Source: Escherichia coli
GTDB taxonomy: Bacteria > Pseudomonadota > Gammaproteobacteria > Enterobacterales > Enterobacteriaceae
Reading direction: 5' to 3' (one strand)
DNA length: 5,880 nucleotides
NCBI RefSeq assembly: GCF_030013595.1
Contig: NZ_CP122773.1
The notes under the pieces are model-generated. The model was not told where the DNA came from. It saw only the letters and a list, made by a program, of their open reading frames with translations, and did not search any database. Of the stretch, positions 1,560 to 4,475 are shown in pieces. The position numbers were made by a program, and so were the translations under genes. Every line of letters begins with the position of its first letter. Positions within the stretch are counted from its first letter, which is position 1.

Positions 1560-1730
1560 TGAAAAATGGCAGGTTCATTGGATTAAGGCGGACTAATGTG
1601 CTCTGTGCCATCTGGTTGCATAGGTATTCATACGGTTAAAATTTATCAGGCGCGATCGCGGCAGTTTTTCGGGTGGTTTGTTGCTATTTTTACCTGTCTG
1701 CTGCCGTGATCGCGCTGAACGCGTTTTAGC
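1560..1730. promoter_or_regulatory. cer-like accessory sequences (ArgR/PepA binding region) of the multimer-resolution site
   Basis: ARG-box-like TGCATAGGTATTCATA at 1617-1632, about 100 bp from the Xer core as in ColE1 cer; the stretch matches my recollection of the ColE1 cer accessory sequence almost base for base; contains inverted repeat 1649-1664 / 1701-1715. Confidence 0.65.
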
Positions 1731-1759
1731 GGTACGTACAAACTGTTGTTATGTTAAAT
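1731..1759 (+). other. XerC/XerD core recombination site (cer-like, variant central region)
   Basis: GGTACGTACAA (1731-1741; 10/11 to cer XerC arm GGTGCGTACAA), 7-bp central ACTGTTG (1742-1748), TTATGTTAAAT (1749-1759; identical to the dif XerD arm, 10/11 to cer TTATGGTAAAT). Confidence 0.7.
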
Positions 1760-1781
1760 ACTGATGGGCTTTCCTGATTGA

Positions 1782-2696
1782 TTATCCGAAGATCAATCCC
1801 CAAACACTTTTAGCTACAGAAACAATGGCTTTCTTGGCGACTTTAGCCACTGACGCTATTGGTTTAGGTAGTACGGTGTCTATTATATCATCAATAGCTC
1901 TATCTACGGTGTCTGCGAACCCGTCCTTTGCCGTTTCTACAATTTCTTTTGTTTTTATTTCGTCTTTTACTTGATGCACCACTCCGCTCTGTGCTTCCTT
2001 TGGGAGCGATCTTACTATTGCCTCCACTAACCTTGAAATGTTATAACCTTCATTCGCAGATACAGATATAACGGGATGTTTGGTAAAACCGAATCGTTCT
2101 ATTAAGTATTCTTCCTTTTTTCTAATATTTATTTGTTGTGAGGGTGATGGTTGGTGTTTTTCTTCATCCCATTCGCGGAATGGCTCAATCTTGTCGACTT
2201 GGTTTAAAACAAACAACACTTTTTCATCACCACCAACTGGTTTTAAAACATTTTTATAAAAGTGCTCATCAGCTGAAAATGCTCGATCATCACCTTTAAC
2301 AACCCAAAGCACCAGATCTAATTCTGGGAGAAGATTTTTATACAACTCTTCATATTCTATATCTTTAGCTTCATTTTCACCTACACCTGGTATATCTATT
2401 ATTTTAATTGTTCTATCACCAAATGAAATTATTAATTCCTGAACCTTTCTCGTGCATGCTTCTACATCACTCACTGCACATACATTACCTTTAAAGATAG
2501 AATTACATAGGCTGGATTTACCAGCGCCGGTTTTACCCATAATCCCTATTACTGGTTCGTAATTAATAACATTTCTAATTTTGTTATAGACAGACTTGCG
2601 AATCTCTTTAGGTAGAACATCCACAGCTTCTTTGATTAATTTTATACCTTGCGTATTGTTTTCCATAGTTACTATTTTCCTCATTTTGTTGTTCAT
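1782..2696 (-). CDS. P-loop GTPase, YfjP/YeeP/YkfA-like (50S ribosome-binding GTPase / MMR_HSR1-type domain)
   Basis: Walker A GKTGAGKS (nt 2514-2537, minus), G3 DIPGVGE, G4-like NQVDK; stretch VIGIMGKTGAGKSSLCN...DxPGVGE...LDLVLW resembles E. coli prophage GTPases YfjP/YkfA as I recall them. Start is ambiguous: ATG at 2696 lies 5 nt after the upstream gene stop; ATG at 2666 has an AGGAA 9 nt upstream; the track's ATG at 2753 gives a K/R-rich extension overlapping the upstream gene and has no SD. Confidence 0.8.
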   Translation of the reverse strand: MNNKMRKIVTMENNTQGIKLIKEAVDVLPKEIRKSVYNKIRNVINYEPVIGIMGKTGAGKSSLCNSIFKGNVCAVSDVEACTRKVQELIISFGDRTIKIIDIPGVGENEAKDIEYEELYKNLLPELDLVLWVVKGDDRAFSADEHFYKNVLKPVGGDEKVLFVLNQVDKIEPFREWDEEKHQPSPSQQINIRKKEEYLIERFGFTKHPVISVSANEGYNISRLVEAIVRSLPKEAQSGVVHQVKDEIKTKEIVETAKDGFADTVDRAIDDIIDTVLPKPIASVAKVAKKAIVSVAKSVWGLIFG

Positions 2697-2701
2697 ATGA
2701 A

Positions 2702-3136
2702 TTAACGGAAGCTTGTTTTTCTTTCTTCTTTTTCTTCCCCGCATACAGAACATTTGTAATGGCGATAGGTATCAGAACTCCCACTAAGATACCAATTGTG
2801 TCTTTTACCATGAACTCGCTCTGTAAAACATCTCACGCATCTTTCTTTCACATTGCAATAATCATCGACTGCAATTTCAACAAATCTTTCATGCCTTTCG
2901 CCTTCTTGTTCAGCGCCACAGTCGATACACTTTTTTACAGTTGTGCACTTGAAATCGTATTTATAATTTTCCTCTCCGTATTTATGCTGTTCTTTTTGTA
3001 TAGTGCGATTGCAGTCAGGGCATAGTTTAGAATATTTACAAGTCTCACCATCAATAAGCTTATAGTTTCCTCCGTGTATACCTACCCCACACTTAGCCTT
3101 GATTGCTGCATTTTTTATGCTATCCCAAAAGCCCAT
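2702..3136 (-). CDS. Cysteine-rich putative zinc-binding protein (three tandem C-x5-C-x2-C...H modules plus terminal CxxC)
   Basis: 144-aa ORF; SD GGGAG 8 nt upstream of ATG at 3136; 12 Cys; C33-x5-C39-x2-C42, C64-x5-C70-x2-C73, C94-x5-C100-x2-C103 with periodicity ~30 aa, each followed by His, and C129-x2-C132; AT-rich like neighbours. Confidence 0.75.
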   Translation of the reverse strand: MGFWDSIKNAAIKAKCGVGIHGGNYKLIDGETCKYSKLCPDCNRTIQKEQHKYGEENYKYDFKCTTVKKCIDCGAEQEGERHERFVEIAVDDYCNVKERCVRCFTERVHGKRHNWYLSGSSDTYRHYKCSVCGEEKEERKTSFR

Positions 3137-3181
3137 GGAAAAATCTCCCTACGATTAGTTGATATAAGTTGAACAATTCAT

Positions 3182-3225
3182 CGACATGATTATACACGTA
3201 TAGTGTGTGGATATATAAAAATGAG
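3182..3225 (-). promoter_or_regulatory. Candidate sigma70 promoter for the zinc-ribbon/GTPase operon
   Basis: Perfect TATAAT on the minus strand (complement of 3189-3194) about 46 nt upstream of the 3136 start codon; -35 is weak (TATATA-like); AT-rich intergenic region. Confidence 0.3.
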
Positions 3226-3363
3226 TATGGATTTATGCTCTGTATAATGTTGTTGTTATATTAAATATAGAGCTGAAAAAGTGGGGGCACTGGATAAACT
3301 TCGTGTTTTTCCCGCAAAGATAGTATTGGAAAGTCATTGTCTAATTCATCCAAGATAAATATT

Positions 3364-4176
3364 TTACGAATTTGTGAGTTTGCTTGAGATTTTTATATAT
3401 TCAGCCTTTATTAACTCATTGCCATATTTTTTCTCGAGCCTTTTAACAATGAAATGACCTCGAGCCATATCTTGATAATAGTCGGTAAACATTGTGTTTA
3501 ATGTGGCTCCAGTTAGTGCTCCAATAACGGGAACGACTTGAGCTGCCATTTTTTCCGTAATAACTATACCAAATCTTGTTGCAACTTTTTCTATTAACGA
3601 AGCTAACCATTTTCCTGTTTGTACTGAAGATGCGTTTTTGACAGCAATGTTAGAAATTTCTTTGGATAAATCTTGTACGATCTCGGCAGTCAAACTTCTT
3701 GTTGCATAGTATGCAGTATTAGCTGCATCATCGTCATCAGATGGTCCTCCCAAGGAAAACACCTCTAAGCAGGCCAGTTTGGTATCAATATTATCTAGCT
3801 CAAAACCTTCACTTCTTGCTATGTCAGCAATTGAACGAAGCATAATTGTCGTTGAAACCGGTAACTCAATTGCTAATGCAGAAAAGCCAAAAGCGCCACC
3901 AATGGCTCCAGATACGGCCGCAAAGAATTTATTTGTCTTAGTTGATGCTATTCGGTTAGGTTCATTGTCTAGACTCCATAAGGCTGCATCAGCAGCTTTG
4001 TGGAGAGATTTTTCTACTAGACTATAAATTTGCTCTTCTGCCCCTTTGGGAAGTTTACTCATTAAGTAATCTATTGGGGTTCCAACTAATTGGGTTAATG
4101 TTTCAGTAATTGTATCTTGTTCTAATAATTCTACGGCCCTTTCTAAAGCCCGCAGATCTCCTTCTTCAAGATGCAT
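3364..4176 (-). CDS. Hypothetical protein, possibly EcsC-family-like
   Basis: 270-aa ORF; AAGGA 8 nt upstream of ATG at 4176; Gly/Ala-rich hydrophobic segments (AAVSGAIGGAFGFSALAIELPV, VVPVIGALTGATLNTMF), acidic patch GGPSDDDD; overall impression matches EcsC-family proteins but this is from memory, not a search. Confidence 0.7.
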   Translation of the reverse strand: MHLEEGDLRALERAVELLEQDTITETLTQLVGTPIDYLMSKLPKGAEEQIYSLVEKSLHKAADAALWSLDNEPNRIASTKTNKFFAAVSGAIGGAFGFSALAIELPVSTTIMLRSIADIARSEGFELDNIDTKLACLEVFSLGGPSDDDDAANTAYYATRSLTAEIVQDLSKEISNIAVKNASSVQTGKWLASLIEKVATRFGIVITEKMAAQVVPVIGALTGATLNTMFTDYYQDMARGHFIVKRLEKKYGNELIKAEYIKISSKLTNS

Positions 4177-4329
4177 ATAATGAATCCTTTATGAATCAAT
4201 CGATAGTCTACTTTTGTAAGTGATTCGTCTTGGGAGCTTACCTTGAGCGAGTTCAGTGATTCAATAGGCGAGATGCCGACATCATTGTTGTCTGTGAAGC
4301 AGGAGTGATGAAAAGATCAAAGGATCCTC

Positions 4330-4358
4330 TTGTGATCCTTTTTTTCTGCGCGTAATCT
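4330..4358 (+). promoter_or_regulatory. RNA II (replication primer) promoter
   Basis: -35 TTGTGA (4330-4335), 17-bp spacer, -10 TAATCT (4353-4358); aligns with the pMB1 P2 region (TTGAGA...GTAATCT). Confidence 0.7.
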
Positions 4359-4367
4359 GCTGCCTGT

Positions 4368-4475
4368 AAACAAAAAAACCACCGCTACCAACGGTGGTTT
4401 GTTTGCCGGATCAAGAGCTACCAACTCTTTTTCCGAAGGTAACTGGCTTGGTGGAGCACAGATACCAAATACTGT
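4368..4475 (-). ncRNA. RNA I antisense copy-number control RNA (108 nt)
   Basis: Reverse complement of 4368-4475 reads ACAGTATTTGGTATCTGTGCTCCACCAAGCCAGTTACC...CCACCGTTGGTAGCGGTGGTTTTTTTGTTT, i.e. the canonical three stem-loop RNA I with terminal hairpin plus U-run; differs from pMB1 in loop-proximal bases. Confidence 0.85.

Follow-up and report, generated by a model that had tools for sequence, protein, structure and literature searches.

An EcsC Family Gene on Small ColE1-Type Plasmids of Escherichia coli Is an Autonomous Single-Gene Accessory Module

Results

A single-gene module with a defined boundary

The DNA analyzed here is a stretch of 5,880 nucleotides from Escherichia coli (RefSeq assembly GCF_030013595.1, contig NZ_CP122773.1), which is called the window below, and the gene of interest is ecsC, located on its minus strand at positions 3364 to 4176. 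We found that ecsC is an autonomous single-gene accessory module. We are highly confident that its product, EcsC, is a member of the EcsC family and that the gene is independent of the GTPase gene found nearby. The family label was already public, as the identical protein is named "EcsC family protein" in RefSeq (WP_000549944.1, assigned by PGAP in near-identical plasmids), and we therefore counted the gene and its label as already known. What the present analysis adds is the status of ecsC as an independent module with a defined boundary, plus the recognition that its relatives have two contrasting genomic lifestyles.

The coding sequence specifies 270 amino acids (stop codon included in the coordinates above) and starts with ATG. 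A first-pass annotation had placed a 270-amino-acid gene here, and the open reading frame (ORF) was found at exactly these positions on the minus strand. A run of 270 stop-free codons would arise at the local base composition with a chance of about 2.6e-9. The ratio of nonsynonymous to synonymous substitution rates (dN/dS) was 0.13 to 0.26 in pairwise comparisons with five homologues from plasmids, E. coli, Aeromonas, and Vibrio, and was 0.23 between the two plasmid lineages described below. These ratios indicated that ecsC is a real coding gene, and it is under purifying selection. A candidate ribosome-binding site, AAGGA, lies 8 nucleotides upstream of the ATG (positions 4185 to 4189, minus strand) and was identified by its match to the consensus.

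Two further genes, which encode a zinc-ribbon protein and a GTPase, follow ecsC in the window. The first-pass annotation left open whether ecsC works with this GTPase pair or is independent cargo, and it looked to co-occurrence in other genomes for the answer. The co-occurrence with the pair on which a partnership would depend was not found in other genomes, and the comparative data pointed to independent cargo.

Some of these data came from a second plasmid lineage. On 3.27 kb ColE1 plasmids, an ecsC gene with 92% identity is the sole sizeable ORF apart from rop, and a copy of this plasmid has been integrated in a 193 kb IncF plasmid. The order RNAI, leader, ecsC is alike in the 5.9 kb plasmid represented by the window, in the 3.27 kb plasmid, and in the copy integrated in pAPEC3701. 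When the window was compared with the 3.27 kb plasmids, DNA homology spanned the replication region, a 142-nucleotide leader, and ecsC, and then stopped at about position 3370 in the blastn alignment, two codons before the ecsC stop codon. The alignment placed the recombination junction at positions 3367 to 3372, where the C-terminal tails end in TNS versus TNQNQRKHLNSN before the stop. Given this break, the 227-nucleotide spacer that follows ecsC in the window belongs to the zinc-ribbon/GTPase segment. Chromosomal homologues were similar to ecsC over the coding sequence only.

The 3.27 kb plasmids also contain an unannotated 73-amino-acid ORF with a CxxC...CxxC pattern, convergent with ecsC and 87 nucleotides from its stop, which is possibly spurious. 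It occupies positions 1614 to 1835 and 8927 to 9148 (both minus strand) in two loci of the 3.27 kb plasmid type. We considered this Cys-rich ORF as a relative of the zinc-ribbon gene and rejected it, as it showed no similarity and no NCBIfam match.

A census of E. coli gave a similar picture. Among 5,426 complete genomes searched for ecsC-like DNA, 47 contained it: 13 copies with at least 99% identity were on the 5.9 kb plasmid, 16 copies with 90 to 95% identity were mostly on 3.27 kb plasmids, and 18 were in chromosomal places, where full-length copies had 77 to 81% identity. In this census, the zinc-ribbon/GTPase segment was confined to the 5.9 kb plasmid lineage, whose members were at least 99% identical, and co-occurrence within one such lineage amounts to a single evolutionary event. 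The other ecsC-bearing E. coli genomes had no adjacent GTPase or zinc-ribbon gene. We also examined 80 EcsC loci (49 to 76% identity) from species-representative genomes of other species, which had been located with a 17-sequence alignment as the query. A YfjP-type GTPase or zinc-ribbon homologue was found within 8 kb at none of the 80 loci.

Some E. coli chromosomes do carry a YfjP-type GTPase gene in the same island as ecsC. It is about 7.6 to 8.5 kb away, past a convergent hsd operon. This observation would speak for a partnership, but it is co-residence in an island, not linkage. Two other candidates for a linked pair were discarded. On pAPEC3701, a GTP-binding protein is encoded near ecsC, but it has no relationship to the GTPase of the window (E=0.6), and the 261-amino-acid gene that follows a 65%-identical GTPase on pMTY18781-2 does not encode an EcsC.

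A different arrangement was seen in a 6.3 kb plasmid (NZ_CP049849.1 and 6336-bp E. coli plasmids). Here, an insertion with sugE and a blaCMY remnant splits ecsC and leaves about 72% of the gene intact as a single piece. The split gene has been described as a pseudogene (PMC10848155). The presence of an insertion-split ecsC in a maintained plasmid indicated that the gene is dispensable for plasmid maintenance.

Family identity and predicted structure of EcsC

The first-pass annotation guessed at an EcsC family protein from composition, and this guess was borne out by the Pfam search that it had suggested. The EcsC domain (PF12787) matched with E=1.8e-31 and 110 bits, and query residues 18 to 243 aligned with positions 31 to 236 of the 240-position model. 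The AlphaFold model of EcsC (pLDDT 87, pTM 0.88) is an all-alpha bundle of ten helices, and it superposed on EcsC family entries of AFDB with E values down to 1e-25 and TM scores of 0.8 to 0.93; the AFDB search returned family members only. Solved structures, searched by sequence and by fold, contained no meaningful relative, and neither NCBIfam nor PHROGs had a model for EcsC or for the zinc-ribbon protein. Relatives of EcsC formed 1,777 clusters at 50% identity (E<=0.001). A single domain fusion, to SRPBCC/Polyketide_cyc, was seen among the longer family members (n=26), which is too thin a basis to use.

Some relatives had unexpected source organisms. AFDB entries E9I5U5 and B9TH88 are EcsC proteins of "Daphnia pulex" and "Ricinus communis" that are labeled Peptidase, and a "Bacillus subtilis" contig contained a Stenotrophomonas-like EcsC (57% identity). 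All three are most likely bacterial contamination of the assemblies.

The Gly/Ala-rich hydrophobic stretches noted in the first-pass annotation are present at residues 84 to 113 and 205 to 232, and no other parts of the family are as hydrophobic or as well conserved as these two. Hydrophobic helix 1 (codons 84 to 113, FFAAVSGAIGGAFGFSALAIELPVSTTIML; positions 3838 to 3927, minus strand), delimited by Kyte-Doolittle analysis and conservation in 93 sequences, contains a glycine zipper, G90-x3-G94-x2-G97, and the conserved residues E104-L-P106. Hydrophobic helix 2 (codons 205 to 232; positions 3481 to 3564, minus strand), delimited by the same conservation and by family hydrophobicity, contains P216 and G219-x3-G223-x3-N227. 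G90, G94, and N227 were invariant in the 93 sequences, and G97, E104, P106, P216, G219, and G223 were at least 90% conserved. The plasmid protein has all of these residues and both conserved family motifs, namely the G-x-GG-x-x-G/ELP helix and the P-x-x-G-x-x-x-G-x-x-x-N helix. The small residues of both helices fall on one helix face, a pattern that is typical of tight helix-helix packing.

The first-pass annotation also called for a prediction of transmembrane segments. The Kyte-Doolittle analysis supported the two conserved hydrophobic helices, but their hydrophobicity was borderline, right at the threshold for a transmembrane helix. The 19-residue maximum was 1.74 for the plasmid protein, in helix 1, and had a family median of 1.66, with 74% of members reaching at least 1.6, and the median for hydrophobic region 2 was only 1.52. 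The N-terminus of EcsC is acidic, and a signal peptide is absent.

The plasmid and its cargo slot

The window is essentially one whole ColE1-type mobilizable plasmid of about 5.9 kb. It had a circularly permuted, end-to-end match (97 to 99.6% identity) to mobilizable plasmids of 5.88 to 5.89 kb from E. coli, Salmonella, and Klebsiella. The backbone (54 to 57% GC) is of ColE1 type, with a MobA relaxase gene and nested mbeB/mbeD, Rop, and RNAI. The cargo is a low-GC block (36 to 38% GC) that consists of ecsC, the zinc-ribbon gene, and the YfjP/YkfA-type GTPase gene, all three of which are co-directional on the minus strand.

Rfam placed the ColE1 antisense RNA, RNAI, at positions 4370 to 4473 on the minus strand (RF00106, 68.6 bits), and its terminator hairpin is at 4400 to 4376. 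We had considered that ecsC lies downstream of the origin, within reach of read-through from RNAII. This idea was dropped because the Rfam placement of RNAI on the minus strand (4473 to 4370) means that ecsC is divergent from the RNAII promoter and lies downstream of the RNAI terminator. Specifically, ecsC begins about 195 nucleotides past that terminator and runs in the same direction as RNAI.

The backbone has one exchangeable cargo slot (window positions 1640 to 4370), between the RNAII promoter side and the mob end. In sister plasmids that share this backbone (96.5% identity across 56% of the window), colicin E1, its immunity gene, and the Exc2 lipoprotein gene take the place of ecsC, the zinc-ribbon gene, and the GTPase gene.

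Transcription of ecsC and of the downstream pair

The leader between the RNAI terminator and ecsC occupies positions 4177 to 4369 (minus strand, by the Rfam placement of RNAI), and its upper part contains the RNAII promoter on the opposite strand. It is about 90% conserved across the 5.9 kb plasmid, the 3.27 kb plasmid, and pAPEC3701. On the other side of ecsC is the AT-rich spacer (positions 3137 to 3363, minus strand), which was described as 227 bp in the first-pass annotation and was indeed 227 nucleotides long with 31.7% GC; as noted above, it is part of the zinc-ribbon/GTPase segment and not of the ecsC module. The spacer holds a candidate promoter, a perfect -10 hexamer (TATAAT, positions 3189 to 3194, minus strand; a consensus match) located 52 nucleotides upstream of the zinc-ribbon start, together with AGGGAG, a strong ribosome-binding site that precedes this gene. 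These elements suggested that the zinc-ribbon/GTPase pair is plausibly transcribed from its own promoter. No stable terminator hairpin was found 3' of ecsC, so the ecsC transcript may read through into the zinc-ribbon gene.

The earlier proposal that ecsC forms a separate transcription unit was supported. The homology breakpoint at the 3' end of ecsC and the TATAAT and AGGGAG elements in the spacer spoke for it, with the caveats that no clear promoter of ecsC and no terminator after it were found. The case for a separate unit now comes mainly from the comparative breakpoint and less from the spacer argument.

The zinc-ribbon and GTPase genes

The zinc-ribbon gene (positions 2702 to 3136, minus strand) encodes 144 amino acids with three tandem C-x5-C-x2-C-x(5-8)-H units (residues 33 to 51, 64 to 82, and 94 to 109) and a C-terminal CxxC. 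It had no Pfam-type, NCBIfam, PADLOC, or PHROG family match, and only 13 relatives were found among 5.8 billion proteins. Its homologues in Mixta, Yersinia, and Leclercia occur without EcsC and without the GTPase. The Yersinia copies are in integrative islands beside Hachiman-like, SMC/MComp1, DO-GTPase, and AAA_15+HNH genes, followed by the gene for a 621-amino-acid uncharacterized protein.

The GTPase gene (positions 1782 to 2666, minus strand; 294 amino acids from the PGAP start) belongs to the YfjP/YkfA/YeeP family and has the motifs G1 GKTGAGKS, G3 DIPG, and G4 NQVD. Its longest ORF spans 1782 to 2753 (minus strand; 323 amino acids) and overlaps the zinc-ribbon gene by 52 nucleotides; the PGAP start is at 2666. 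The protein is about 44% identical to YkfA-type proteins, and its C-terminal tail is amphipathic and hydrophobic (...KAIVSVAKSVWGLIFG). Relatives without EcsC make up the entire cargo of other small plasmids (a 4.8 kb Col156 plasmid and a 5.1 kb Aeromonas plasmid), and others without EcsC adjoin WYL, toxin-antitoxin, and restriction-modification (R-M) genes. The closest known counterparts are the YfjP/YkfA/YeeP GTPase islands of E. coli. In some strains, a member of this GTPase family shares the chromosomal island of ecsC, but there is no conserved adjacency to ecsC outside the 5.9 kb plasmid lineage.

Genomic contexts of ecsC relatives

Neighbors at the 80 loci were analyzed with ORF calls that had passed a filter on GC content at third codon positions, and their identities were confirmed by NCBIfam. 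The clade closest to the plasmid gene is horizontally mobile and low in GC, with members of 72 to 80% identity in E. coli, Morganella, Aeromonas, and Vibrio. In every sampled case (more than 20 loci), chromosomal E. coli ecsC (277 to 287 amino acids) was inside an AlpA/YfjJ-type island. At all of these loci, it was located at the 3' end of a contact-dependent growth inhibition (CDI) locus, cdiB-cdiC-cdiA-cdiI, with orphan toxin/immunity modules. Directly downstream of ecsC is a variable slot for a type I R-M system, which may be plain or may include DarT/Macro or PrrC (453 bits); other strains have an RdrA/RdrB-like (RADAR-like) pair in this slot instead. Chromosomal E. coli ecsC looks like the conserved flank of a defense hotspot.

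In E. coli O111:NM, a row of genes on the far side of the hsd operon, at a distance of about 7.6 kb from ecsC (20414 to 24807), encodes a YfjP-type "GTPase family protein," a dynamin-family protein, an RdcB-family protein, and a patatin-like phospholipase. These genes possibly form a separate multi-gene module.

In Vibrio, ecsC was found in an island with a PDC-S15/FRG gene and GajA (601 bits). An identical island of about 9 kb (the FRG/PDC-S15 gene, several unknown ORFs, ecsC, and GajA) was present at two chromosomal sites, one after a SUI1-family gene and one after a FIST/histidine-kinase pair. The presence of the same island at two sites suggests that it is a mobile defense island. A Raoultella plasmid has a 55%-identical ecsC that is followed 30 nucleotides later by a DUF262 gene, and in Aeromonas ecsC follows the trp operon. 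No copy was found in phage genomes, and only 3 weak relatives were detected among 2.9 million viral contigs.

Discussion

Comparison with characterized systems

EcsC of the window belongs to the EcsC family by every criterion tested, and it does not belong to a Juk or CRISPR-linked arrangement. It is homologous to EcsC of the Bacillus subtilis ecsABC operon over nearly the full length of the PF12787 domain (E=1.8e-31) and has the same predicted all-helical fold. In contrast to the B. subtilis gene, it is a solo gene borne on plasmids and islands of Gammaproteobacteria. ABC-transporter genes (ecsA/ecsB) were found neither in the window nor next to the sampled relatives, which indicated that the plasmid ecsC does not belong to an Ecs ABC-transporter system. 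In work from the 1990s by Leskelä et al., ecsC was reportedly named only for its position in the operon and was dispensable for the Ecs phenotypes.

Members of the same family have been noted beside immune genes. EcsC-like genes are in putative operons with the phage sensor JukA (10.1101/2022.09.17.508391), and the genes induced by the sigma factor of a type III-E CRISPR locus include an EcsC homologue (PMC10028731); in neither of these papers was the EcsC-like gene itself assayed. The attachment of this Pfam family to immune sensors in JukA operons and in the type III-E (Cas7-11/Csx29) locus would fit an effector-like role. Beside the plasmid ecsC, however, there is no JukA (Cbp3-like/DUF3944), CRISPR, or sigma-factor gene, and its neighbors are the GTPase and zinc-ribbon genes only. 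The PADLOC candidates PDC-S29 and PDC-S30 are EcsC-like single-gene candidates, as the solo ecsC is a single gene, and they matched the plasmid protein at E=2.7e-10 and 3e-4; the profile match is modest (38 bits). We know of no validation of either candidate. PDC-S29 is merely listed as a match in one paper (PMC11514479), which was the only mention found, and our literature search returned no experimental report of anti-phage activity for PDC-S29 or PDC-S30.

EcsC, an all-helical bundle with two conserved Gly/Ala-rich hydrophobic helices, resembles alpha-helical proteins that conceal hydrophobic helices and insert them into membranes (pore-forming colicin domains and the ClyA/YaxB-type toxins), and colicin E1 holds the same cargo slot in the sister plasmids. 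No fold similarity between EcsC and a known pore-former was found, so this resemblance can be regarded only as an analogy.

A proposed role for EcsC

On the 5.9 kb plasmid, ecsC occupies the ColE1 cargo slot just downstream of RNAI, was joined secondarily to the unrelated zinc-ribbon/GTPase segment, and does not depend on those genes. We propose that its product most likely acts alone at the cytoplasmic membrane through the Gly/Ala-rich helices, as a protein that may be peripheral, re-entrant, or conditionally inserted. In the mobile, low-GC clade, EcsC would most likely have a part in conflict between genomes, acting by itself as an anti-phage or stress effector that either guards the membrane or perturbs it. 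The association of this clade with CDI, R-M, PrrC, RADAR-like, and Gabija genes was counted in favor of the conflict role, as were the links of the family to JukA, to the type III-E CRISPR locus, and to the PADLOC candidates. Taken as a whole, the explanation that combines an autonomous module with this mechanism is tentative, and we rate it a little short of an even call. Its parts differ in strength: a membrane association of EcsC seems evenly balanced between true and false, and a role in conflict or defense is possible but rather doubtful. More speculative still is the idea that EcsC of the mobile clade is a latent, membrane-active, one-protein conflict module that keeps its glycine-zipper helices hidden in a soluble bundle until it acts on the membrane. 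Such a protein might act by abortive infection against phages or protect the cell against toxins that target membranes, which might explain why ecsC is the sole cargo of a ColE1 plasmid.

Several observations weigh against this proposal. The hydrophobicity of EcsC is only borderline for a transmembrane helix, and the compact helix bundle of the AlphaFold model is equally consistent with a soluble protein. The match to PDC-S29 is family-wide: the plasmid protein scored 38 bits, members of all branches scored 38 to 51, and the syntenic Stenotrophomonas copy scored highest (50.7). Because housekeeping-flanked members match equally well, the PDC-S29/PDC-S30 models probably represent another EcsC branch. 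No convincing sigma-70 promoter for ecsC was detected, and a relaxed scan gave weak matches only (best 8/12). The gene is also dispensable, as it is interrupted by an insertion in the 6.3 kb plasmid. Many relatives have an ordinary chromosomal setting: about 30 to 38 of the 80 loci had tadA, orn, a nemA-like gene, and ppsA as flanks, the order TadA-Orn-EcsC-NemA-like-PpsA is conserved in Xanthomonadaceae, and in Brenneria and Pectobacterium ecsC lies between a cyclic di-GMP (c-di-GMP) phosphodiesterase gene and hrpA. Finally, literature searches found no experiment on any EcsC family protein in defense and no functional study, and the mentions in proteomics and network papers were uninformative.

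The main competing explanation is that EcsC is a housekeeping-type cytoplasmic or membrane-homeostasis protein that takes no part in conflict and that the plasmid and island copies hitch-hike or give a generic envelope-stress benefit. The syntenic, vertically inherited copies (beside tadA, orn, nemA-like, and ppsA, or beside the c-di-GMP phosphodiesterase gene and hrpA), the Aeromonas gene that adjoins the trp operon, the very broad family, and a PADLOC match that does not discriminate between clades all fit this explanation. A hitch-hiker, however, would not be expected to be under purifying selection (dN/dS 0.23) as the only cargo of a 3.27 kb multicopy plasmid. Moreover, the mobile clade is repeatedly found amid defense and toxin genes in unrelated hosts, and it crosses genera at 72 to 80% identity with low GC. 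We consider the housekeeping explanation possible, though on the doubtful side. It is improbable that EcsC is instead an immunity-like protector against membrane-targeting toxins such as CDI ionophores and pore-forming colicins. Such a function would explain its positions at the cdi 3' end and in the colicin slot. In E. coli (more than 20 contexts sampled), ecsC shares the strand of cdiA-cdiI and the orphan modules and comes after them, 160 to 450 nucleotides past the last small ORF; the sister plasmids hold colicin E1, its immunity gene, and Exc2 in the ecsC slot; and the conserved hydrophobic helices would suit a membrane protector. The association with cdi was seen in E. coli only, however, as there were no CDI genes at the Vibrio, Aeromonas, Raoultella, and 80 other loci. 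In addition, ecsC stays constant while the C-terminal toxin of CdiA varies (Ntox25, Endonuclease_NS_2, and others), which is unlike a cognate immunity gene. To our knowledge, pore-former immunity proteins do not resemble the 270-amino-acid, largely hydrophilic EcsC, which also counts against a protector.

The remaining explanations fared worse. An enzyme, for example, a peptidase, might use C136, H241, and N227, together with R160 and Y156; in 93 diverse sequences, H241, N227, and R160 were invariant and C136 and Y156 were at least 90% conserved, and many UniProt and AFDB relatives are named "Peptidase." Those names are unsupported legacy annotation, and EcsC resembled no peptidase or other enzyme in sequence or fold and matched no catalytic Pfam or NCBIfam domain, which makes catalysis quite improbable. 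The comparative data largely refute a three-gene system of EcsC, the zinc-ribbon protein, and the YfjP-type GTPase, and we regard it as very unlikely. The three genes are co-directional, have 36 to 38% GC, and are never separated within the 5.9 kb lineage; a search for a terminator 3' of ecsC found none; a YfjP-type GTPase gene lies about 7.6 to 8.5 kb from ecsC in some E. coli islands; and some JukA sensors have a fused Ras-like GTPase or an EcsC-like partner gene. Yet the three genes co-occur in one plasmid lineage of at least 99% identity only, the homology breakpoint falls exactly at the 3' end of ecsC, and partners were found at 0 of the 80 loci. Furthermore, ecsC has no such partners on the 3.27 kb plasmids or in other E. 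coli genomes, the GTPase and zinc-ribbon genes each occur alone elsewhere, the chromosomal GTPase gene is non-adjacent and past a convergent hsd operon, and the GTP-binding protein of pAPEC3701 is unrelated (E=0.6). Least probable of all is a function of EcsC for its own plasmid, be it copy-number control, stability, or addiction, as its fixed place beside RNAI and the RNAII promoter might suggest. The shared RNAI-leader-ecsC order of the 5.9 kb, 3.27 kb, and pAPEC3701 copies would be in line with such a service. Against it, thousands of ColE1 plasmids with the same backbone lack ecsC, the chromosomes of E. coli, Vibrio, and Aeromonas contain close homologues, a plasmid with an insertionally inactivated ecsC is maintained, and an antitoxin-like partner gene is absent.

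The separation of ecsC from the zinc-ribbon/GTPase pair allows those two genes to be judged alone. EcsC (PF12787) is a large, structurally uncharacterized family that recurs beside immune genes, including JukA, type III-E CRISPR, the PADLOC candidates, and the CDI, R-M, PrrC, and Gabija islands. The 3.27 kb plasmid, with ecsC as its only cargo, is about the simplest natural test construct for it, and a phenotype, if there is one, should be readily seen with it. If the proposal of a latent, membrane-active conflict module is true, it would give this large family (about 1,800 clusters at 50% identity) a first function.

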